DNA from: a virus
Lineage: Duplodnaviria > Caudoviricetes
DNA: 45,510 bases
Virus record (IMG/VR): IMGVR_UViG_3300037722_000182
Span: 1-45,510 of that record
Reading direction: 5' to 3' (one strand)
Positions 11,583 to 37,395 of this stretch are shown piece after piece. The stretch's first letter is position 1. Each line of letters opens with the position of its first letter. The translations under genes were made by a program, and so were the position numbers. The notes under the pieces are model-generated. The model saw nothing but the letters and a program-made list of their open reading frames with translations, had not been told where the DNA came from and searched no databases.

Positions 11583-12404
11583 TTATTTTGTTGCTGCGTA
11601 GGTGGACGCACCTGAAGCCGCTGCATTTACCAAACCCGCTTTAAAGTTAGAGTCTATAACTGCTTGGTTACGAGCCGTTGAAGCATTGCCTCCGCCTATT
11701 GTGCTGTTTCTACGAAGGTCGGCAGAGAGTAAATCGGCTATAGAGGTTATGTCACTCTCTACCTGCATGGCTCCTATCTGTATATCGGTACTTAAAGTAT
11801 TCGTGGCGTTACGTATACGGCCTTCATAGGTTATCTTCTTTATCTCTTGGTCTGCCTGAAAGTTTGATATGGCTTTAGCGTTCAATATGTCGCCAGCCTT
11901 CTTGTCTGCTCCATACTTTATTATGAACTTGTCAAGTGCCTCTTGGGTCATTTGGTCTATGACTGCATCCGCATTTGAGCCTACACCTAAAGTAGTTCCT
12001 GAAGCTGACTGGTTAGCTATTAACGTACCTCTTTCTCTTGCTCTCTCCATACCTATTAAAGAGGTATTCAGATTCGCTTCATCCCACACCTTTACAATAT
12101 CCTCTTCGTAAAGTATATCATTCAACGAATTGGTGGCGGATATTAGAGATATGTTAGCCTGATCTATGGCGTCATTGGTACGATTAGTGAGAACAGAAGT
12201 GGACTTGATAACCGATTGATTTAGTGAAGTTATCATCTTCTGCGCTTCTATGTTACTAGAATCAACACGATACTGTACCTCCGCATTGTACTTATTCCAG
12301 GAGTTAGCATTTTTATTTGTAGCCGCCCCTGTTTTTGCCGAAGATGAGGCACTGTACGCTGATGCGGCTAACGCTACGGCTGCGAAGATTAGAGGAAAAG
12401 GCAT
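11583..12404 (-). CDS. Internal virion protein (gp14-like position)
   Basis: Hydrophobic Ala/Ser-rich N-terminus; QSASGTTLGVGSNADAVID motif; follows tail tube B. Confidence 0.65.
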   Translation of the reverse strand: MPFPLIFAAVALAASAYSASSSAKTGAATNKNANSWNKYNAEVQYRVDSSNIEAQKMITSLNQSVIKSTSVLTNRTNDAIDQANISLISATNSLNDILYEEDIVKVWDEANLNTSLIGMERARERGTLIANQSASGTTLGVGSNADAVIDQMTQEALDKFIIKYGADKKAGDILNAKAISNFQADQEIKKITYEGRIRNATNTLSTDIQIGAMQVESDITSIADLLSADLRRNSTIGGGNASTARNQAVIDSNFKAGLVNAAASGASTYAATK

Positions 12405-22858: not shown

Positions 22859-23320
22859 TTAGTTGGCTGAGTGAAGTTCTATAACGGGCTGATTCAGGTT
22901 GTTAGTCAACCTTCGTGCCTGAACATTATCTAGTTCTTTCGGTCTTTCGAAGACCACCATGATGTTAGTGTTAGCTCCTGCTCCGTTCGCCTCTGGTTCT
23001 TTTTCTCTTCTATCGTGGTAAGCTCCAAGACAGAACTTAACCAAGGCAGAAGGGAACTTGTCCTGTAGCCCATTCACTATATACTTGTCTTCTATTTTGG
23101 TAAGAGAGCGGAGAATAGTTCCAACTGATGCTTCGGGGTATTTTGATAATCCCTCTTCATAGTTCTTCAAAGTTACGTTTATGTCGTAACTTCTATTGAA
23201 CCCAATGGCAAGGGCCAAACCAGGAACGGTTGGGATAGAAGATTCTAACTCGGTCATTGTGAAGTACATATCCGCAAGTGTTTCTATAAGCATGGGGTCA
23301 TGCATGGCTACATTATTCAT
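22859..23320 (-). CDS. terS: Terminase small subunit (P22 gp3-like)
   Basis: PTVPGLALAIGF motif; directly upstream of terL. Confidence 0.7.
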   Translation of the reverse strand: MNNVAMHDPMLIETLADMYFTMTELESSIPTVPGLALAIGFNRSYDINVTLKNYEEGLSKYPEASVGTILRSLTKIEDKYIVNGLQDKFPSALVKFCLGAYHDRREKEPEANGAGANTNIMVVFERPKELDNVQARRLTNNLNQPVIELHSAN

Positions 23321-23358
23321 AAGGGTTCCTCTATTGCTGGTTGAAGTAGGTATTGAAT

Positions 23359-23388: not shown

Positions 23389-23419
23389 GAGCGATTTTCA
23401 ACTAACCCGTTAGTTAGAT

Positions 23420-23443
23420 GTAAGTAGTTGAAATTGTTAGATA
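23420..23443 (-). promoter_or_regulatory. IHF-like site, inverted copy of 25305-25328
   Basis: TATCTAACAATTTCAACTACTTAC vs TATCTAATAATATTAACTACTTAC (21/24); resembles WATCAANNNNTTR. Confidence 0.5.
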
Positions 23444-23484
23444 TATTGTGTTTATAACTGTTTGGGTTTGGAGGGAGTTCACAG

Positions 23485-23586
23485 GGTGGGATTGATAGCC
23501 TGAATCGGGTGCTAGATTAAATATATTGGCCCTTGGCTCGATTTGCCTGATGGTGTGGGTATATTGGGTCAGGTCATATATTTACG
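23485..23586 (-). repeat. Degenerate 102-bp inverted repeat, left copy
   Basis: Ungapped alignment to 25170-25271, about 66/102 identical by hand count. Confidence 0.75.
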
Positions 23587-23633
23587 TTTCTTAGGAGCGA
23601 ATATATTGAAATGCTGCTTTGTGGTAGGTAAAC

Positions 23634-23680
23634 AAAAAAAATCCCTTCAGCACCGTGGATGAGTCGGCACTGAAGGGATT
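23634..23680 (-). terminator. Terminator of the predicted sRNA
   Basis: AATCCCTTCAG...CTGAAGGGATT stem followed by T8 on the minus strand. Confidence 0.8.
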
Positions 23681-23786
23681 CGGGAGGGAGGTCACGCCCT
23701 CTGGTAGCGAAGAACCTTTACCGGGGAGAGGAACAGGCAAAGGGTACAAGAAGGGCCGAACGGTTTTTGCTTCCGGCCACGATTAA
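23634..23786 (-). ncRNA. Predicted ~150-nt multi-hairpin small RNA
   Basis: Own promoter upstream, three hairpins, then a strong terminator; GC-rich island in AT-rich DNA; no ORF of 60 aa or more. Confidence 0.65.
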
Positions 23787-23791
23787 ATTTC

Positions 23792-23819
23792 AATATAACA
23801 CTTTTTATAATTGAGTCAA
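23792..23819 (-). promoter_or_regulatory. Sigma70-type promoter of the predicted sRNA
   Basis: TTGACT-16-TATATT with an extended -10 TG. Confidence 0.6.
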
Positions 23820-23840
23820 TAAATATTTTAAAAAAGTTTC

Positions 23841-24070
23841 TGCCATCCGGTAGTTGACAATTCTTTGTCATGTGGTAGTTGATAATTCTCTGTCATCTGG
23901 TAGTTGACAACTTTAAAAAATTGAAAAATTATATTCTGTCAACTACCAGTTGACAACTTTAAAAAATTGAAAAATTCTATCTCTGTCACTCGGTAGTTGA
24001 CAACTTTAAAAAATTGAAAAATTCTATCTCTGTCACTCGGTAGTTGACAACTTTAAAAAATTGAAAAATT
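23841..24070. repeat. Iteron-like tandem arrays (25-bp, then 46/47-bp period) built on TGTCA-N9-TGACA
   Basis: GTTGACAACTTTAAAAAATTGAAAAATT at 23903, 23949, 23996 and 24043. Confidence 0.9.
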
Positions 24071-24211
24071 TTGTGTGTGGTCCTGTCACCCCGCCGCCGC
24101 ACCTACCATTTTCCCCCTACCCCCCCCTTTGATGATCGAGCGCTCAGTCAGGTACATGGACGTGTCAAGTGACACGCAACTTGTCATCTACCAGTTGACA
24201 CATACAGGATA

Positions 24212-24373
24212 TAGCATTGACGCTTGACGTGTCAACTGACAGAGTACGTTGTCAACTAGATAGACCTGGCAACTAACCAGTTAGTTGACCGGGTAGTAGC
24301 ATTGCCACTTGACACGTCAAGTAATGTTTCACGTGAAACGTCCGGGCAGTAGTATTGATACTTGACGCGTCAA
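24212..24373. repeat. Three 24-bp repeats ending in a TTGAC-N2-GTCAA palindrome
   Basis: Copies at 24212, 24297 and 24350. Confidence 0.75.
24325..24340. other. parS-like site
   Basis: TGTTTCACGTGAAACG, 15/16 match to the bacterial consensus TGTTTCACGTGAAACA. Confidence 0.75.
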
Positions 24374-24961: not shown

Positions 24962-25066
24962 TTGACAACCTGTCAATTATGTTGCAATGCACCATTGTAT
25001 ACTTGACAACCTGTCAATTATGTTGCAATGCACCATTGTATTATGTTGCAATGCACCATTGTATAC
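24962..25066. repeat. 41-bp direct repeat (two copies plus a partial third)
   Basis: TTGACAACCTGTCAATTATGTTGCAATGCACCATTGTAT units. Confidence 0.9.
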
Positions 25067-25135
25067 TTGACACTTGACACTTGACACTTGACACTTGACA
25101 CTTGACACTTGACACTTGACACTTGACACTTGACA
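25067..25135 (+). repeat. Heptamer tandem array (TTGACAC)x9 plus TTGACA
   Basis: Read directly from the sequence. Confidence 0.95.
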
Positions 25136-25169
25136 ACGCCTACCCTTCCCAATTTGCTTGTTTAAGCCA

Positions 25170-25449: not shown

Positions 25450-25460
25450 AGGGAGGTCAC
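25450..25460 (+). promoter_or_regulatory. Shared extended RBS (AG)GGAGGTCAC-N3-ATG; also at 26961, 27448, 27925, 30413, with a variant at 35151
   Basis: Same 9-11-mer exactly 3 nt before the ATG of five genes. Confidence 0.85.
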
Positions 25461-25463
25461 ACC

Positions 25464-26582
25464 ATGAAAACTAACACCACTACAAGTCATCTTTGTCCAA
25501 TCGCCCTTTCAGTACTTAATCACGTCAGCAAAGCTAATGGATGGAGCGTCAAAGATGACACCGCCCTTAGTGCAGCAGGTACAATGGTACGATTCACGGC
25601 GAAAACATGCGTTATATCCAATGCAGGTCAGAAAATAGTATTGAAAATTGGTACTGCGATAAAGCCGATAGTATCCCAAATTATTATTGTCGAAAACAAA
25701 GCAAAAGAAGCACTCAAAGCAGATACAACTGCAAAACAACAAACACCAACAATCAAACCAAATGAAGAGGTAAAAACCATGACTGAAATTACACCAAACA
25801 CCGTAGCAAAGAATAAAGCCACTGCCGCTGCAAAAAAAGCCGCTGCCGAAAAAGCAAACGATGCCCTTAACTTGCTTGCCGATCCAGAAGAAAGCACTGA
25901 AGTCACACCAGCCACTCCTGCAAAGACGGGCAAAGTAGAGGCCTTCAAAGCTGCGACGGATAAAGTGGTAGAAACTCCCAAAGCTCCCAAAGAAGTCAAG
26001 GCTCCTGTTATCGCAAAGCCTCTTGTTAATCCTGCCGGAACAGCTACACCCGTTTTTGAAGAACTGAAGGCCGCCTGTGACAAGACTGAGAAGGTCGAAA
26101 GCGTTATAAAATCCATGTGGGAAGAGATCGGGAAGAAGTTTAACAACTCTATTTCAGGCATTACCACTGCTCTGTTGGCAGAAGGACTCTGGCCGGCTCG
26201 CAAGGACGCTAAAGGTAACTTTGTAGCCGATCCAGACGGCAACCAAGTACCTGCCGGTTATCAAGCCGTATACAAAGCGGAGAAAGCGAATGGTGTAAAA
26301 GGCGCAGGTCATTATGTAAACACTGCTGCTGCTGCTTTCGGTCGAATCAACATGGAGAAAGGCCGCATCAAAGCAGAGGAAGACAAGAAAGCAGGGAAAC
26401 CTACCCCCGTCGATGATACACCGACCGAAAAACAGCTTAACAAGTTGCTCCTGCAACTGGAGTCAGCTGCACAAAAGTTGACCGCTGGTCAGCTTAAAGA
26501 GTGGCTGGAAACTTCCAAAACCATGGCACCTGTTATCGATGCGATCGTTGCAGAACGTGAAGCATTGAATGAACTCGGTTAA
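25464..26582 (+). CDS. First early gene, Ala/Lys/Thr-rich hypothetical protein
   Basis: 372 aa, strong RBS; possible in-frame restart at 25779. Confidence 0.8.
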   Translation: MKTNTTTSHLCPIALSVLNHVSKANGWSVKDDTALSAAGTMVRFTAKTCVISNAGQKIVLKIGTAIKPIVSQIIIVENKAKEALKADTTAKQQTPTIKPNEEVKTMTEITPNTVAKNKATAAAKKAAAEKANDALNLLADPEESTEVTPATPAKTGKVEAFKAATDKVVETPKAPKEVKAPVIAKPLVNPAGTATPVFEELKAACDKTEKVESVIKSMWEEIGKKFNNSISGITTALLAEGLWPARKDAKGNFVADPDGNQVPAGYQAVYKAEKANGVKGAGHYVNTAAAAFGRINMEKGRIKAEEDKKAGKPTPVDDTPTEKQLNKLLLQLESAAQKLTAGQLKEWLETSKTMAPVIDAIVAEREALNELG

Positions 26583-26935: not shown

Positions 26936-26972
26936 CCGTTAGTTGATATTAAAATCGAATGGAGGTCACACC

Positions 26973-27413
26973 ATGACGGACAAAGCCGAAAAAAGAGACT
27001 ACTTAATACTGAATATAGATACACGAGTTGATAAAGTATTTATACAGGTAAACAAAAAGACGGACACAGATATGTGTTATAACCTGACTTTTGCGAAGTC
27101 AAACAGAGAATATTATCTTGTATGTCAAGGATTCTTTGTACCTTGTTATTCAGGTAGGCATGAATCATCTATTTACGGAGACGTTAATACCCGAACCATA
27201 GTACACTGCTTGAAAGTGCTCCCGAAAATATTGTATAATAAAATCAATTTGGTTGAGGTTATTGCGGATATAATCAAAAGGGAAAAGCTTAACCTGTATC
27301 AGATAAATGTCAATTCCAATATGGACTATTCGCAAGCGAAGAAAATCAATATCTTAACTCTTTCTACTATTCAAACGGAATTGAATAACCAAGGATTCCC
27401 AATAGCTTTTTAA
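26973..27413 (+). CDS. Hypothetical early protein
   Basis: Start reassigned to 26973 by the GGAGGTCAC RBS. Confidence 0.7.
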   Translation: MTDKAEKRDYLILNIDTRVDKVFIQVNKKTDTDMCYNLTFAKSNREYYLVCQGFFVPCYSGRHESSIYGDVNTRTIVHCLKVLPKILYNKINLVEVIADIIKREKLNLYQINVNSNMDYSQAKKINILTLSTIQTELNNQGFPIAF

Positions 27414-27459
27414 CTAACACGTTAGTCATCATCTAACAAAACTTTATGGAGGTCACACC

Positions 27460-27708
27460 ATGACAAGTATAGATAGAATAGAAGCCAGTTGTCTTTCTTA
27501 CCTCGAACCCATTGAGCAACACTACCAGTCAACAATAAAACCCGAAAAACAAACTCCTTACAATAACGTAGAACTACTGAGAAAACAGTTTGCTGAACTG
27601 GAAGCAAGGTTTCAATCAGTTGTTCAGGCAAGTGCGCAAGTTATAGCTGCACAGCAAAACTGCATCAAAGAGCTTGAAAAAGCTATTCACGCCTTGAAAT
27701 ACAAATAA
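27460..27708 (+). CDS. Small coiled-coil early protein
   Basis: GGAGGTCAC RBS; heptad pattern. Confidence 0.7.
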   Translation: MTSIDRIEASCLSYLEPIEQHYQSTIKPEKQTPYNNVELLRKQFAELEARFQSVVQASAQVIAAQQNCIKELEKAIHALKYK

Positions 27709-27895: not shown

Positions 27896-27938
27896 CTAAC
27901 GTGTTAGTTGGCATTAAAAATTAAAGGGAGGTCACCCC

Positions 27939-29036
27939 ATGTTACCAAAAATAAATCATGAACAATATGAAAAGCTGTTAGATGTTGTAATGGCGTCAGG
28001 GCACCCATTGCTTGTAGTAGGCAAGCCTGGGATAGGCAAGACACGTGCGCTGAAAAAATATTCAGTAAAGAGAAATGCCGATTTAATTATATCACACCCA
28101 GCTACAGATGCCCCGCAGGATATAAAAGGTTATCCGGCAAAAACAAAGATAAAGCTACATGCTGAATCTGACGACTTGGAAGACATTCTTATCAATCTCT
28201 CAACCGAAGAAGAGGAAATTGACGTAGCTACCTTCTTACCTTTCGGCCAGATGTTGCAGATACTCCGGGCAAGGAAGCCTACTATATGGTTCTTTGATGA
28301 CTTTGGGCAAGCGCCGCCTAGCGTACAAGCCGCCCTTATGCAATTGATAGGCGACAGGGAGTTATGCGGTAAAAAGCTACCTGATTGCGTCAAGATCGTC
28401 GCTGCTACTAACGGCAAGGAGCATAAAGCGAATGTAAACTACTTACTCGAACCAATAAAATCACGGTTCGGTATGATAGTTGAGTTGATGGAGGACTTGC
28501 CAGGCTTCCGGGTATGGGGTGATAACATTGGTCTACACCCTAATGTGATGCTGTTCCTTGAAGCTTTTCCTGAATCTTTTTGCGTGTTTAAAACTGATCT
28601 AGGTATGGAGAACAGCCCGAACCCAAGATTATGGGAAAAACTCTCTGACCAACTTTACGCTTTTGAAGCGACAATTGTAACAGACGACAAGTTAAGGGAA
28701 ATAGTCGCTTGTGGTTGTGTTGGTGAAAGTCATGGTAGACAATTCTCTGCTTTTGAGCGGGTACGTAAAGTTATACCCACTTATCAGGAGATAATTAACG
28801 ATCCTGAAGAGTTTCCGATAAATCATCCAGTAGACCAACGTATTGCTATTCTTGGCATGTTGGCTACACAAGGGAAACCGAATCATGCCGATGCAATCTT
28901 TACTTATGTCAAGAAAATGGCGAAAGAATATCAGGTCGTCTTCTTCAGGCTCGTTAAGCGCTATAACAATGACTTAACTGGTACGGATTCAGCGCAAAGA
29001 TGGTTCGCTGCTAATATGGACATTTATCTAGACTAA
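27939..29036 (+). CDS. MoxR-like AAA+ ATPase
   Basis: GKPGIGKT, FFDDFGQA, VAATN, SRF, NPRLW. Confidence 0.85.
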   Translation: MLPKINHEQYEKLLDVVMASGHPLLVVGKPGIGKTRALKKYSVKRNADLIISHPATDAPQDIKGYPAKTKIKLHAESDDLEDILINLSTEEEEIDVATFLPFGQMLQILRARKPTIWFFDDFGQAPPSVQAALMQLIGDRELCGKKLPDCVKIVAATNGKEHKANVNYLLEPIKSRFGMIVELMEDLPGFRVWGDNIGLHPNVMLFLEAFPESFCVFKTDLGMENSPNPRLWEKLSDQLYAFEATIVTDDKLREIVACGCVGESHGRQFSAFERVRKVIPTYQEIINDPEEFPINHPVDQRIAILGMLATQGKPNHADAIFTYVKKMAKEYQVVFFRLVKRYNNDLTGTDSAQRWFAANMDIYLD

Positions 29037-29261: not shown

Positions 29262-30398
29262 ATGACCATGTTTGATAACAAAGACCTTGAAAAGATAAGA
29301 GCAAAAGTAGTTGCGGATTATCCTCTTCTTTCGTCGTTCATGTTCAACCTTGAAATGAATTCTAACGAGTTTATACCTAATCTTAAGGTGAACATGAAAG
29401 AGGTTATGTATAACCCTGAATACATGGCAAGCTTATCGCCAGTAGATCAGATGGTAGCTTTCATACATGAAATTGCCCACGTATTTTTAGGTCACCCACT
29501 ACGTATCAGACCAGTACACGACAAGGAGAAAATTCAAAGAGCGGCAGATTATGCGGTTAATGATCTTTTAAAGGATATGGGGCTTCCGGTTCAGTACAAT
29601 TTCTTATGGTCGCATGAGTTTACTGGAATGGCAATGGAGGAGATATATGCCAAATTGGAGAATAATCAAGAGCGCAGACCTCAACCAAAGTGGAACGAAA
29701 AAAGTCAAGGGGAATGTATGCCTGATTCCAAACCTTCGCCGGGAGGAGGAGACACGCCAGAACAAATAGAGAAGAAGCTGGAAGAACACGCAAGGAAGCA
29801 AATGGACGCTATCCAACAAGCTCGGATGATGGGAGATATGCCTGCTAACTTGCGTAGACGGTTAGATAAGATGACCGAATCGAAAACGGATTGGCGACAG
29901 CTTTTACCTTCTACTATCGAAGACGTACTCGGAATGGAGGACTACACTTTCGAGCATCCAGATAGACGTTATGATTGTAAGTTTATCCTTCCTGGTATGG
30001 TGGGAACGAAAGTTGGCTCGGTAGTCTTTGCTGGTGATACTTCAGGTTCGATAAGTACGAAACAGCTCGTGGCTATGTCTGCTGAGGTTATGGGCTGTAT
30101 TCAGAATATAGCACCCGAAAAGACTTATGTCATATGGTGTGATTCGAAAATAGGCTCGGTACAAGTATTTAATGAAGGAGAGGAGCCTGAGCTGAACCCA
30201 GTGGGAGGAGGGGGAACGGACTTCAAACCGCCTTTTAAGTATGTAGAGGATAACAGCATTGACCCGATAATGCTGATATACCTGACAGATGGGTATTGCA
30301 GCAGTTTTGCAAAAAAGCCGGACTATCCAGTTATATGGCTTGTATGGCAAGATCAGTCTAAATTCGTACCGCCTTATGGTAGGGTAATCGTAATGTAA
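29262..30398 (+). CDS. Metallopeptidase plus vWA domain protein (DUF2201-like)
   Basis: HEIAH; MIDAS DTSGS, GGGGTDF, LTDGY. Confidence 0.85.
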   Translation: MTMFDNKDLEKIRAKVVADYPLLSSFMFNLEMNSNEFIPNLKVNMKEVMYNPEYMASLSPVDQMVAFIHEIAHVFLGHPLRIRPVHDKEKIQRAADYAVNDLLKDMGLPVQYNFLWSHEFTGMAMEEIYAKLENNQERRPQPKWNEKSQGECMPDSKPSPGGGDTPEQIEKKLEEHARKQMDAIQQARMMGDMPANLRRRLDKMTESKTDWRQLLPSTIEDVLGMEDYTFEHPDRRYDCKFILPGMVGTKVGSVVFAGDTSGSISTKQLVAMSAEVMGCIQNIAPEKTYVIWCDSKIGSVQVFNEGEEPELNPVGGGGTDFKPPFKYVEDNSIDPIMLIYLTDGYCSSFAKKPDYPVIWLVWQDQSKFVPPYGRVIVM

Positions 30399-30424
30399 CT
30401 AACATGTTAGTTGGAGGTCACAAG

Positions 30425-30673
30425 ATGAGTATACTTAGCAAGATTAAACTTCTGTTTACTTACGGCCCAGAGCTAGAGGAGATGGTAAAGAAAGCACGAA
30501 AGGAGCAAGAGGAGCGTATAAGTTTTGAGCGTATGCACAACTTAAAACTGTGTAGGAAGCACCGGCAAGAATCCCCACATTCGGAATACGCCGAAAGCAA
30601 TTGTGACTACTGTAAACTCTTGCATGAGCTAATAAAGGGAACGTCGAGTGCAGATTACAGAAGTCGTAAATAG
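30425..30673 (+). CDS. Small protein with a CxxH...CxxC motif
   Basis: Start 30425 by the GGAGGTCAC RBS. Confidence 0.6.
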   Translation: MSILSKIKLLFTYGPELEEMVKKARKEQEERISFERMHNLKLCRKHRQESPHSEYAESNCDYCKLLHELIKGTSSADYRSRK

Positions 30674-31473: not shown

Positions 31474-34350
31474 ATGTCAAACATAACTATACTACGGCCA
31501 ACGTGGGATCAGGCTGTAACAGCAAAGTCTTTTGCTCTTGAAGAGAATACTCGGATACCTAAACTGGTATCCGAGTATGAGCTAGGACTAAAATTCACAT
31601 ATGCAACCACAGAAGTAAAAACAATCTCAGCTCTATATGGTTTATTATCCAGATGTGCAGATAAAAAAGTCATAAGGATATATGGCCGACCTGTTCAAGG
31701 CTTAGGTCCGATAGCACATAGACGCATGACAGATTTCGAGTGCGAAGAAACGAATCTGCTAATGATTGATGCTGATAGCTGGCCTGTTCCAGACGGTTTT
31801 TCCTTGGGGACAAAGGAAGGGATACGAAAAACCGTAAATGAAATAATTGTAAATAGAATGGGTTTAGAGGTACTTAAAGGAGTACAGTTTTGCTGCCTAT
31901 TATCTTCAAGTATGTGGTCGAAAGATAAGTTAAGAGCGCACTTATACTTTTTACTCGATGAACCCGTACCGCTTAAAAGTCTACACGCTTGGGGCTTTGA
32001 CCACAACGCACTAAACGCAGTTTATAAAATAGATTATAGGTCTTTCCACCAGATACAGCCTGACTACATATCAAGAAGGGTATGCCAGGGATTTAACGAT
32101 CCACTACCTGATTCATTGAGGTTAACTGAGCATTGTGACCACCTATCTCCCTATGTACGAAAGGCTGATCTGGTTGGATTGTTTAACGATACAGGATTAA
32201 AAGCAGGGTCGAGCACAACTAACACGTTAGTTAGCAAAGTTCCCATAGGGTCAACGTGGGAAAAGACGCTAGAGTTATGCGGTAGCCAGACCCACGGTAT
32301 AAACGAACCCGCTTACAGGGCTTGCGCTCAACTGGTTCAAGAAGTAGGAGATTCAGCAGTTACCTCTGACTTAATATATCACGTTAACAACGTGTATACT
32401 AAGATGTGGGTGGCCATAGCCAAACACGGAGTAAGAGGGGCAAAAGAAGATCGGGATAGGTACACCAGAGAGAAGATCAAAGGGTATCTACAAACTGCTG
32501 TTAAGAAAAAATTCGGGGAGCAGTCAGACCTACACGTTAAAGACGTAACCGATGCAATTGAAGCAGTAAAGAATGGTGGTAATACGTCTTTACTCTTTGA
32601 TAGGAGTTGCCTCGATGCTATAAGACACCTAAAGTCGAAGATGCCTGAAAGGTGGGTAGATGTAAGGGCAACGATAAAGAGGGAACTGAAGAGCAAGGTA
32701 TCAATAGCTGATTTAGAAAAAGCTGCTTCTGATCTTGGCGATAAGCTTGACCCTGAGTTAATGGTTGAGTCTCTGATTGAGCAGTTCAAATGGATACAAG
32801 GAGAAAACGATAACTGCCTGTACTGCATGATTGAAAATGGTGACAAGTACAAGTTAATCTCTTTGGATGACGGGGTTGAAGAGGAAGTATACGCCAGAGC
32901 ATTTGGTATCTACGGAGGTAAGTTACCTTTTCAGTTTGAGCGAATAGTGCTACGTATATTAATGTCTCGGAAGGATGACCCCATATATAGTCCTTTTAAA
33001 CTCTATCCAGTTGAGAACAGGTGTTACTCAACAGTAATAAACGGTAAGAATACTACGTACTATAACCTTGGTACTACACTTCAAGGAGAAATGCGAACCG
33101 CTGTGGTATGTGAAAAAGGAGTTAAGATAATTCCATCAGTTAAAGCCCCTGTGCTATGGAGGTACACAACTAACACGTTAGTTGCTGAAGTAGACGACTT
33201 CCTTGAGCAGATAGAAACATTAGGAGAGTTGGGGAAGCAACTGTATATTGATAACTACTTGGAAGGTATCAGGGAGTTTACAACAGTTGTTGATAACCTT
33301 GATCTACTTGAGTTGATTGCATGGCAGACGGTAGCGGTAGTTAATACTGGAACCGCTAACCTGTTGCAAATAACCGGCAGGTCTGAAGATGGTAAGAGTA
33401 GTACTGCAATATTTACCAAAGAGCTATGCGATCCCACCTCAGCAGATATTAAAGAGGGTCCAGACCTACACAGTGGGTTATATAAGAAGGAGGACTTAGC
33501 AAAAACTCTTAGGAACAGGCATGTAACAGTCTTTGATAACTTGAGCGGTATAGCTCCAAGGGATCAAGATATGCTTTGTTCAATAGCTACTGGATGGAGG
33601 TACGATATGAGGGTAATGTACTCTCAGCGGTACTTAGATTTGATTATAAAGAAACCGCTGATACTGACCGCCTTGCTTGCGGTAACTACTAACCAAGATT
33701 TAAGGTCAAGAACTATCACGGTAGCAGTAACCTCCGATATGAAGAATTGCAAAGGGGATTTGTACGCTAAGTGGAGAGAAGAAAGCCCTAAGATGCGTAT
33801 AGGTTTACTGTTCTTTGTTTCAAAGGTAATAGCAAGAGTCAACAAACTGAGAGAGAAGAACAGTGATTTGAACGATAGGTCTTTATGGAGTGACCAAGCA
33901 AGGATGGAAGCTGCCTTGTTGTTGAAAGTATATCCTGACGTAGAAAAAATGTCAGAGAAGAAACTAGCTCAAAAGGTAGGGGAAAGGAAGCGATTCGAGA
34001 ACGCTAACGAAGCCGTACTTAACTCGGTTACAAGTTTGGTAATTGCTTGGATTTGTAATGACCCAATCTTTCTGAAGAAGAGGGAGATTTTTTTGAGCAC
34101 TAACGAGTGCTACATATACTATCGTAATTTTGTAAATGAGAACGCAGGGAAGATAGTAAACGCTAGTGGTTTTTCAATAGAAATAGCACCAGCGAATATG
34201 GTGAAAACTGTCCGGTCTTTAGGAACTCGGTTAGGTGTATCTGCAAGAGACATACACTTGGTAACAGGGAGAAGAGTGATAAGCACTAGCGAGGGAATAA
34301 ACCGGGGATGGAAGTTTTTTGAAAAAGCATACGAGGAGGTAGTAGAATGA
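31474..34350 (+). CDS. Putative primase (AEP-like) / P-loop helicase fusion
   Basis: LMIDAD and SSS...RAHLYF primase-like motifs; GRSEDGKSS and VFDNL ATPase motifs; first gene of the replication block. Confidence 0.6.
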   Translation: MSNITILRPTWDQAVTAKSFALEENTRIPKLVSEYELGLKFTYATTEVKTISALYGLLSRCADKKVIRIYGRPVQGLGPIAHRRMTDFECEETNLLMIDADSWPVPDGFSLGTKEGIRKTVNEIIVNRMGLEVLKGVQFCCLLSSSMWSKDKLRAHLYFLLDEPVPLKSLHAWGFDHNALNAVYKIDYRSFHQIQPDYISRRVCQGFNDPLPDSLRLTEHCDHLSPYVRKADLVGLFNDTGLKAGSSTTNTLVSKVPIGSTWEKTLELCGSQTHGINEPAYRACAQLVQEVGDSAVTSDLIYHVNNVYTKMWVAIAKHGVRGAKEDRDRYTREKIKGYLQTAVKKKFGEQSDLHVKDVTDAIEAVKNGGNTSLLFDRSCLDAIRHLKSKMPERWVDVRATIKRELKSKVSIADLEKAASDLGDKLDPELMVESLIEQFKWIQGENDNCLYCMIENGDKYKLISLDDGVEEEVYARAFGIYGGKLPFQFERIVLRILMSRKDDPIYSPFKLYPVENRCYSTVINGKNTTYYNLGTTLQGEMRTAVVCEKGVKIIPSVKAPVLWRYTTNTLVAEVDDFLEQIETLGELGKQLYIDNYLEGIREFTTVVDNLDLLELIAWQTVAVVNTGTANLLQITGRSEDGKSSTAIFTKELCDPTSADIKEGPDLHSGLYKKEDLAKTLRNRHVTVFDNLSGIAPRDQDMLCSIATGWRYDMRVMYSQRYLDLIIKKPLILTALLAVTTNQDLRSRTITVAVTSDMKNCKGDLYAKWREESPKMRIGLLFFVSKVIARVNKLREKNSDLNDRSLWSDQARMEAALLLKVYPDVEKMSEKKLAQKVGERKRFENANEAVLNSVTSLVIAWICNDPIFLKKREIFLSTNECYIYYRNFVNENAGKIVNASGFSIEIAPANMVKTVRSLGTRLGVSARDIHLVTGRRVISTSEGINRGWKFFEKAYEEVVE

Positions 34351-34634
34351 AACTGGAAATGTGGTTAGAGTTAAAAGGGATGGGGCCAACTGAGCTTCGT
34401 AAAAAGCTTACTGAGCGATTCGGGGGTTCACCATCTAAACAATCTTTATCAAACATAGCCAAAGGGAAGAATCAAGCAAGCCTTGAGATAGCCCTTATGC
34501 TGAAGGAGGTCACTGACGGAGATTTGGATTTATGGAAGTTGGTAAATAACCCGAAGTATGTAGGTAAGTTGGGGGTAATGACAGAAGAAGCCCCGGGCAT
34601 GGATGAAGTGGATGATCTTTTAAATAGCCTGTAA
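34347..34634 (+). CDS. Cro/XRE-like HTH protein
   Basis: LELKGMGPTEL...SKQSLSNIAKGKNQASLEIAL. Confidence 0.7.
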   Translation: MKLEMWLELKGMGPTELRKKLTERFGGSPSKQSLSNIAKGKNQASLEIALMLKEVTDGDLDLWKLVNNPKYVGKLGVMTEEAPGMDEVDDLLNSL

Positions 34635-35102: not shown

Positions 35103-35164
35103 CCGGCTACCTGTTAGTTGGGGTTAATACCCTTAACTAACAGGTTAGTTAGGGAGGTTACACA

Positions 35165-36484
35165 ATGTCAGAACAGCATAGTAAATTAATGTCCCCTTCC
35201 AGTTCAGGGCTATGGATACCCTGTACTGCAATGCCTCAAGCTCTGCTCGATTCCGAGTACGTGGATTCAACAGGGCCGGAGGCTGGAAGGGGGACAATAC
35301 AGCACGATGTAGCAAAGAGAGTAACAGAAGGAAAGATGACACTAGCTTCAGCCTGTCCAACAGAGGTTGATGGGGAGGAGTGGGACCAAGTAAAGACAGC
35401 GGTAGAGGCTATCTATACCTTCCTTCAGTCAGAAGGTGTAACGGTTAGAACAAAGTATTTGTTCCTTGAAAAGCCTGTCTCTTTCAGTGGGTGGCGTAAG
35501 GATTGCTTTGGAACAGGTGACTTTATATACTTTGATCCGGATACCTTAACTCTTTATGTTTTCGATTACAAGTTTGGAAGAGTGCTGGTAATAGTGGAGT
35601 GGAACAGTCAACTGCTTATATACGGACTGGCGGCAATAGAGACATTGATAAGAGAGGGGGTTATAACAGAAGTAAAGAACCTAGTTATTGGTATCTCTCA
35701 GCCGAAAGTATCTTCACTCTTGCAAACGCACCGCCTTACGGTAGCCGAGGCTTTGGATTGGGATAAGAATGTTTTAATCCCTGCGCAGAAAGCAATAGTA
35801 GAAGGTAAGGGTAAGTTTAATCCCGGCGGTCACTGTACTGCTAAGTATTGCAAAAACGCCCGTAACTGTTCAGCGTTCAAGGAGCAAGGTAGTAAGGATA
35901 TGGAGTTGTTTGTTGCGGATTATCCTGTTGTACCTACCAAGGACACGATAAACTCTTTATCAGTAATGGAGTTATCTGACCTTGTTCAAAAATCTCTTGT
36001 CGTAGAAGGAGTTATAAAGGAAGTAAAGGACAGGGCAAAGAGCCTCCTCGAATCGGGAATGCCTGTTCCCGGGCTGAAGCTGGTAGAAGGTAGGGGCAAA
36101 AGGGAATGGACTTCAGAAGATGAAGCTATCACTTTCCTCACGGAGCAGAAAGTACCCGATGAAGAGATGTTTAACGTGTCAGTTAAGACGCTGCCCCAGG
36201 CTGAGAAACTTCTGAAGAAGGAGTTGAAGTTCTCTTGGGTCAAGGAAGGGTTCAAGAAACTTACTAAGTGGGTTCCAGGCTCGCCGGTATTGGCGCTTGA
36301 ATCTGATAAAAGGAGTGCGGTACTACCTGAAAGTAAAAAGGAGGAGGTAGAAATAGAACTGGAAAAAACTGTAGAGGAATGGGTGTCGATGTCAACGGAT
36401 ACCAGTATAGACGATCTTCTAAGCGAGCTTGACTCCCCCAAAGGGGAGTCGAACGAACTGGACGATCTATTGAACAGTCTGTAA
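35165..36484 (+). CDS. DUF2800 Cas4-like PD-(D/E)XK nuclease
   Basis: HSKLMSPSS..W..C, GT..H, FGTGD, DYKFG, NSQLLIY, GGHC..YC. Confidence 0.85.
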   Translation: MSEQHSKLMSPSSSGLWIPCTAMPQALLDSEYVDSTGPEAGRGTIQHDVAKRVTEGKMTLASACPTEVDGEEWDQVKTAVEAIYTFLQSEGVTVRTKYLFLEKPVSFSGWRKDCFGTGDFIYFDPDTLTLYVFDYKFGRVLVIVEWNSQLLIYGLAAIETLIREGVITEVKNLVIGISQPKVSSLLQTHRLTVAEALDWDKNVLIPAQKAIVEGKGKFNPGGHCTAKYCKNARNCSAFKEQGSKDMELFVADYPVVPTKDTINSLSVMELSDLVQKSLVVEGVIKEVKDRAKSLLESGMPVPGLKLVEGRGKREWTSEDEAITFLTEQKVPDEEMFNVSVKTLPQAEKLLKKELKFSWVKEGFKKLTKWVPGSPVLALESDKRSAVLPESKKEEVEIELEKTVEEWVSMSTDTSIDDLLSELDSPKGESNELDDLLNSL

Positions 36485-37251: not shown

Positions 37252-37392
37252 TGAGTTGTGGCGGAATTGGTGATTATGGAACTAAGGGATCAGGCAACCC
37301 GGAAGGTCTATTGTCGATTCAACGCCAGGTAACAGGGAGCGTGACAACCAGCCTGACGCAAACCTGTGCAGGTTCGAATCCTGCCAACTCAT
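37252..37392 (+). ncRNA. tRNA-like RNA with enlarged D and anticodon arms
   Basis: Acceptor TGAGTTG/CAACTCA, TGGCGGAATTGGT, T-arm GCAGG-TTCGAAT-CCTGC. Confidence 0.7.
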
Positions 37393-37395
37393 GAT

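Follow-up and report, generated by a model that had tools for sequence, protein, structure and literature searches.

The window (the whole 45,510-nt stretch of DNA analysed here) is an entire circular phage contig with a terminal overlap of 127 bp. The public sequencing runs that contain this region are sediment metagenomes, with no RNA library among the five runs listed, and the phage is uncultured. Its structural genes lie on the minus strand, beginning with terS (22859-23320) and continuing with terL, portal, capsid and tail genes. The plus strand from 25464 onwards carries the early and replication genes, which encode an AAA ATPase, DUF2201 and DUF2800 proteins, SSB, PolA, VRR-NUC, a SNF2 helicase and a 958-aa protein without a family match. 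The capsid protein is approximately 45% identical to those of phiV10/Tyrion-like phages. A blastn search of the window against 50,697 phage records returned no match, and the Atlas contained no family for the first early protein (372 aa). Neither an integrase nor a CI family was identified among the 49 ORFs scanned, in keeping with the first-pass annotation of this DNA, which had described a phage with no obvious CI/integrase module. However, that description overlooks a 95-aa ORF at 34347 that resembles Cro/YdaS HTH proteins (feature score 0.92) and 23 operator-like palindromes. Antirepressor families were likewise absent from the 49 ORFs.

The palindrome in question is 18 bp long (YAACTAAC-NN-GTTAGTTR) and its 23 copies (0 expected) are spread from 2103 to 43443, both in gaps and inside ORFs, with one copy (23399) directly upstream of the terS promoter. 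It is also found in two relatives of the phage that are described below (23 copies in G001; present in G002) and is absent from two others (G003 and G004). It is a candidate operator-, stoperator- or packaging-like element, for which the HTH protein encoded at 34347 is a candidate binder.

Upstream of terS, the minus strand contains a putative transcription unit (Table 1). Transcription is placed near 23785 on the basis of the promoter predicted by a consensus scan, and folding of positions 23783-23634 predicted three hairpins followed by a 16-bp terminator stem and a U8 tract, so that the promoter, hairpins and terminator listed in the first-pass annotation stand at their original coordinates. 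The minus strand of the unit had a folding z of -3.73, with none of 200 shuffles folding as well, compared with a z of -1.12 for the plus strand, where 25 of 200 shuffles were as good. A search of the whole window against Rfam gave no gathering-level match, and the c4 family (RF01695) was absent among the 33 matches up to E = 10 over positions 23400-24100. The first-pass annotation placed the complement of the early-gene tag (see below) in hairpin 3. The complement, GUGACCUCCCU, is exact, but in the predicted fold only GUGACCU is exposed in the loop, while CCCU, the generic anti-Shine-Dalgarno (anti-SD) part, lies inside the 5-bp stem.

Table 1. Features of the putative RNA unit and of the sites with which it could pair (RBS, ribosome-binding site; positions are those of the window).
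Feature	Position	Strand	Details
Predicted sigma-70-type promoter	23792-23819	-	TTGACT, 16 nt, extended -10 TG-N-TATATT; consensus scan
Predicted non-coding small RNA, ~150 nt	23634-23785	-	Folding; no Rfam family
Hairpin 1 (predicted)	23753-23780	-	Folding; missing in close relative G001
Hairpin 2 (predicted)	23715-23743	-	13-nt loop with GUUCCUCU at 23734-23727
Second segment pairing 12/13 with terS RBS and start in window and G001	23709-23721	-	P about 0.05 in each
Hairpin 3 (predicted)	23684-23701	-	GUGACCUCCCU at 23695-23685
Predicted intrinsic terminator hairpin and U tract	23634-23680	-	Loop ACUCAUCCA (23656-23664)
terS RBS and start codon (doubtful target)	23318-23332	-	AGAGGAAC at 23325-23332
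Tagged RBS and ATG, first early gene (372 aa)	25450-25466	+	11-nt Watson-Crick match before 25464; rank 1/42
Tagged RBS and ATG, 146-aa early gene	26961-26975	+	9-nt match before 26973
Tagged RBS and ATG, 82-aa early gene	27448-27462	+	9-nt match before 27460
Tagged RBS and ATG, AAA ATPase gene	27925-27941	+	11-nt match before 27939; behind 12/12 consensus promoter
Tagged RBS and ATG, 82-aa early gene	30413-30427	+	9-nt match before 30425
G-U tag variant before DUF2800 nuclease gene	35151-35167	+	ATG 35165; same variant in G001
Tag copy inside Cro/YdaS-like HTH ORF (95 aa)	34505-34513	+	Kept in G001

A tag shared by early-gene ribosome-binding sites

The tag GGAGGTCAC occurs seven times in the window (at 23687 within the unit and at 25452, 26961, 27448, 27927, 30413 and 34505), compared with 0.29 copies expected. 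All seven copies are on the plus strand and none of 100 shuffles reached this number. Five copies lie exactly 3 nt before the ATG of an early gene. The complementarity between hairpin 3 and six early genes that the first-pass annotation had listed, including the G-U variant, was recovered in full (Table 1). The copy at 34505, which it omitted, may be due to chance or coding constraint within the HTH ORF. The tag precedes 5 of the 22 early-arm genes and none of the 20 late-arm genes (Fisher P = 0.049), or 6 of 22 early-arm genes if the G-U variant is counted (P = 0.022), for a set of 42 genes whose starts were chosen by us. Strong promoter-like sites or copies of the 18-bp palindrome precede several of the tagged genes, a placement that fits fast expression and then a stop.

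The match between the RNA and the early genes was above chance (P = 0.007 for at least five genes with nine Watson-Crick pairs; 20,000 dinucleotide shuffles, in which the shuffled RNAs keep the C-rich composition of the unit). When all 42 genes were ranked by accessibility-corrected pairing, the six tagged genes were all among the top 10.

The unit and the tag in related and unrelated viruses

G001 (locus L001; TerL 92%) is a close relative that keeps both promoter hexamers, hairpin 3 and the terminator. The RNA core is identical at 47 of 50 nt, versus 75% in the adjacent spacer. Hairpin 3 falls within a 29-nt run that is identical in G001, although this invariant core is not unique, as the non-coding region also has invariant runs of 57, 36, 32 and 30 nt. 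The terminator stem has two double and three single structure-preserving changes, one broken pair and one deleted pair, with its loop unchanged, and the stem of hairpin 2 has one double and two single structure-preserving changes, with its 13-nt loop reduced to 5 nt. This gives a total of three double and five single structure-preserving changes. All five single changes are swaps between G-U and Watson-Crick pairs, of a kind that keeps pairing on the minus strand only. As judged by folding, the two strands of the G001 unit are equally stable (z -3.26 and -3.18). G001 has neither hairpin 1 nor the GUUCCUCU loop, and a contig from run X4 carries the same shortened version of the RNA. The unit is a real, conserved and structured element, with its own predicted promoter and terminator and without a coding frame (consensus scan, folding and comparison of two sequences).

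Six exact tags and one variant are found on early genes of G001, with varied flanks. One other feature of these early regions is a long identical leader before two genes, and one gene has a long canonical SD. The early-gene match had a shuffle P of 0.001, and every one of the top 10 of 42 predicted targets in G001 was an early-arm gene that pairs via hairpin 3; the seven tagged genes were all among them. Checking the RNA against the phage 5' regions, as the first-pass annotation had suggested, places the tagged early genes high in both phages. The terminator loop ACUCAUCCA was also considered as a second seed, but it had no conserved target in the rankings of the window and G001.

The pairing with terS, the first late gene, did not hold up to the same degree. 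The first-pass annotation had noted that loop 2 is complementary to the terS RBS, and GUUCCUCU does pair exactly with AGAGGAAC over 8 nt. However, this match is near chance (P = 0.051; 20,000 dinucleotide shuffles, with one gene selected out of 42) and it is lost in G001, which keeps the terS site GAGGAAC despite the loss of the loop. The second segment (23721-23709) shows no compensatory change between the two phages, other untagged genes also score 12/13, and in the predicted fold of G001 it is buried in a stem. Among the 42 predicted targets, terS ranks 9th in the window and 17th in G001. Since the loop is missing in G001 and the match is near chance, the proposal that one RNA controls both arms is not supported. 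As a possible target, terS is neither demonstrated nor likely.

Among the more remote relatives, G002 (complete; TerL 70%) carries two tagged early genes. Its non-coding DNA contains no free antisense copy of the tag and no covariance-model match. This indicates that the tag can exist alone, which counts against an obligatory link between tag and RNA; either the RNA was lost in G002 or the tag came first. A GTGACCCC site in an intergenic region of G002 was rejected by eye, as it matches the upstream repeat region and not the RNA. In the same genome (L005 5867-10001), terS and terL are separated by approximately 3.7 kb of other genes. Neither tagged starts nor the RNA were found in G003 (TerL 51%) and G004 (TerL 42%).

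Wider searches returned few members. Scanning metagenome and genome collections by TerL alignment gave 597 and 600 candidate stretches, respectively, none of which was confirmed. A scan of viral contigs for the RNA pattern gave 25 stretches, of which only G001 and an unrelated contig, G006, were real, and a two-loop pattern gave 86 stretches (85 checked), of which only G006 was real. Two metagenome matches to the RNA pattern were rejected, as both lie in long open frames without tagged RBSs, and the two inspected of four genome matches were not convincing. A search with a G006 neighbour gene matched only itself. A covariance model built from four sequences and run over 38 sources (613 kb) recovered its training set only, the next best match (14.9 bits) being the antisense of an RBS. 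The RNA family is tiny.

A scan for the tag plus ATG alone gave 123 stretches from 36 of the 64 parts of the viral collection. Among the 121 loci checked, two lineages have at least four tagged starts, namely G006 and a group of phages represented by G007. G006 (L099) is a 132-kb virus contig that is unrelated to the window, the best link between them being a 27% helicase match. It has 12 tagged genes, five of them directly behind a repeated promoter cassette, and two free copies of the tag, 69 nt apart, that precede no gene. Two long hairpins at the 3' end of a tagged operon have the complements of these free copies in their apices (z -3.68; predicted fold), and approximately 1e-4 such pairs would be expected (calculated after the fact). 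The free copies run opposite to the tags nearby, and the pairing recurs in an orientation opposite to the operon. The motif GGCGUGACCUCC-N6-AAUCC is common to one of the apices and the window RNA. The promoter scan found no promoter of its own for the G006 RNA, and RF01695 was absent from the two Rfam matches in this region. The promoter cassettes of G006 (L099 8367-8470, 10332-10420 and ~11920-12050, minus strand) precede tagged early genes, and two of them have a long inverted repeat directly upstream of the -35 box.

The first-pass annotation had looked to covariation between loops and RBSs in related phages. Only two versions of the RNA are known from the window lineage, and for this reason loop-tag co-variation cannot show within it. 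Between that lineage and G006, one base outside the tag does track the RNA. The base 5' of GGAGG, which lay outside the search pattern, is A in none of six tagged sites in the window and none of seven in G001, where the RNA has C, and in six of eight tagged sites in G006, where the RNA has U (P = 0.0097); at untagged sites it is A in 10/19 and 10/16. Because A is also the base of the canonical SD, the G006 half of this comparison carries less weight; what is informative is that the window lineage avoids A.

In the second lineage, G007-G010 (L038, L081, L102 and L104), an unrelated phage group, GACCT-GAGG-AGGTC is repeated before many starts, and CTGAGGAGG is found in 14 of 41 RBSs of G007. On the modelled fold, this hairpin would hide the SD in cis. 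No free anti-tag hairpin was found in the group, whose members are fragments at most 34% complete.

Interpretation and comparison with known systems

The hairpin 3 loop is the exact complement of a private early-gene tag, which suggests that one RNA likely switches this gene set off together. We estimate a probability of roughly 60% that the unit is a gene for a trans-acting sRNA whose hairpin 3 loop pairs with the tag on six early-gene RBSs and blocks their translation as a group, as a repressor or timer. The first-pass annotation had also read the unit as a trans-acting repressor. The early-gene half of that reading is supported, on sequence comparisons, by the target ranking, the conservation in G001, the recurrence in G006 and the 16S tails considered below, and the two-arm half is not retained.

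Under the sRNA model, host RNA polymerase would transcribe the unit shortly after the DNA enters the cell. With its open loop GUGACCU, the RNA would seed on AGGUCAC, the part of the tag that is not SD, and pairing would then open the 5-bp stem (about 4 kcal/mol) and cover the site from the SD to the AUG. The final duplex is predicted to have 9-11 Watson-Crick pairs, and up to 13 of 14. With the generic anti-SD half kept in the stem, most host and late mRNAs would be spared. Once the RNA has accumulated, the genes expressed first would be shut off (a timer), or the RNA might silence them in a carrier state.

Alternatively, the tag could be a leader cassette that spread among early genes by duplication and recombination, and the copy in the unit a relic within an RNA or terminator kept for another role, for example insulating the late genes from upstream promoters. 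The long identical leader in G001, the presence of the tag without the RNA in G002 and the several promoter-like sites that point towards the terminator all suit this explanation. We nevertheless regard it as unlikely, since different genes retain the tag within differing flanks, the free copy lies in an unchanged hairpin between changed stems, and the same pairing recurs in the unrelated G006 in opposite orientation to the operon. Slightly less probable still is the version of the first-pass annotation, in which the RNA pairs with the tag but serves as an RNA master repressor, or as an immunity factor, that acts on terS together with the early genes. The absence of an integrase or CI among the 49 ORFs and the two stretches of pairing with terS, one of which is kept in both phages, agree with that version; the loss of loop 2 in G001, the marginal P values, the equal scores of other untagged genes, the rank of terS (9th and 17th) and the burial of the second segment in a G001 stem speak against it.

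A protein could also read the tag (a RegA-like repressor, a RegB-like nuclease or a DNA-binding protein), with the copy in the unit as a binding site or decoy. Phage T4 uses proteins at early RBSs, where RegB and RegA inactivate early mRNAs as a group through a motif in their translation initiation regions, and RegB cleaves GGAG (PMC3014915, in the sections available). In the window phage no such protein was identified, although it has a Cro/YdaS-like protein and the free copy has the same sense as the tags on the plus strand. A decoy RNA would need the sense tag, however, and the predicted promoter, the U tract and the G-U pattern all indicate the antisense strand; in addition, the spacing of the tag is fixed to the ATG and the free copies in G006 are inverted relative to nearby tags. 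We therefore consider a protein reader to be quite improbable. Finally, the tag would be merely an optimal SD if the 3' end of the host 16S rRNA were itself complementary to GGAGGUCAC. The absence of GGAGGTGA from the window agrees with this reading. In the available text of a survey of 20,495 taxa (PMC6107228), more than 19,600 of the 16S tails carry one of two canonical sequences, the sequence needed is in none of the nine common 13-base tails listed, which may not include that of the host, and the CAC extension of the tag pairs with none of these nine variants. The G001 gene with a long canonical SD and the absence of the tag from all 20 late genes, including the capsid gene, also argue against an optimal SD, which would leave the antisense loop unexplained and which we consider very improbable. 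The sRNA model thus remains our preferred reading.

The unit resembles the c4 RNA of phages P1 and P7 (RF01695), a structured phage RNA whose loops pair in trans around the RBS of the phage's own mRNA and block translation, with one part covering the RBS and another giving specificity. According to the accessible parts of two papers (PMC5320573, PMC12197685), c4 is a 77-nt RNA that RNase P processes from its target operon and whose two loops, a' and b', mediate control of an antirepressor. In contrast, the unit is predicted to be bounded by a promoter and a terminator of its own, has a single conserved seed and would act on six dispersed early genes. It has a complement to the phage's own RBS region exposed in a loop, as in c4 (predicted structure only). 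However, it does not use two loops on one target, as loop 2 lacks conservation and only hairpin 3 pairs with the tagged genes; the unit stands alone before terS, not upstream in an antirepressor (icd-ant) operon; and it does not match the Rfam covariance model. Judging from the modelled pairing, the unit works like the P1 c4 RNA but is not a member of its family.

Bacterial sRNAs such as CyaR, RsaE/RoxS, RNAIII and LhrC expose a C-rich seed in a loop that pairs with the SD regions of several mRNAs. These sRNAs are host-encoded and read the generic SD, whereas in the unit the exposed bases recognise an extension private to the phage, with the generic part predicted to lie hidden. PreS of lambda and VpdS of VP882 are trans-acting phage sRNAs with multiple targets; as far as the available part of their description goes (bioRxiv 10.1101/2024.10.31.621285), they differ from the unit in being Hfq-dependent, in that PreS has mainly host targets, and in having no shared RBS tag on their own early genes. 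We found no description of a phage sRNA that targets a shared RBS tag on its own early genes in the literature covered, which consists largely of non-subscription papers; the motif could sit in the supplements of PMC10690425 (10,006 candidate viral RNAs) or PMC2864571.

The tag itself recalls the start-associated sequences (SAS/ESAS) of cluster K mycobacteriophages, an asymmetric repeat located a few bp before the ATGs of non-structural genes and conserved beyond SD pairing, as is also true of the tag. In the portions of the two reports available (PMC3203893, PMC11373665), SAS often adjoin an inverted repeat, a single copy is not tied to a gene start, and their function was called unknown in 2011 and again in 2024. 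The two systems differ in sequence (the tag does not fit the 13-bp cluster K consensus given in the available part of PMC3203893) and in host group. The SAS orphan is oppositely oriented, with no RNA partner described in those portions, whereas the orphan copy of the tag lies inside a predicted promoter-terminator unit.

What is well understood about early-gene shutoff in phages concerns mainly protein systems, T4 RegB among them. If true, the tag-plus-antisense-RNA circuit would be a compact RNA-based regulon of phages and would offer a way to design RNAs that leave generic SD sites alone, and the model offers a testable function for start-associated sequences. More tentatively, it is possible, though we would not expect it, that unrelated phages mark their early genes with a private RBS barcode read by one sRNA, an RNA-only master switch of early translation that might in this integrase-less phage also extend to terS and superinfection immunity, and that such an RNA is the missing partner for start-associated sequences generally.

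Further elements of the window

Between the two arms, repeats of 46-47 bp with abundant TTGACA/TGTCA accompany tandem copies of the 7-mer CTTGACA (23834-24080 and 25065-25136), giving many -35-like hexamers. Candidate readings of these repeats are an origin, a genome end or a sigma decoy. A 16-bp near-palindrome at 24325-24340 resembles the bacterial parS consensus and has no match in G001 within two mismatches. A tRNA-like element follows the SSB gene in the window (~37255-37395) and is also found in G001 (~29500-29680, minus strand). This element has neither an ARAGORN call nor an Rfam match. Its D-loop and T-arm motifs are kept, and its long middle differs between the window and G001.
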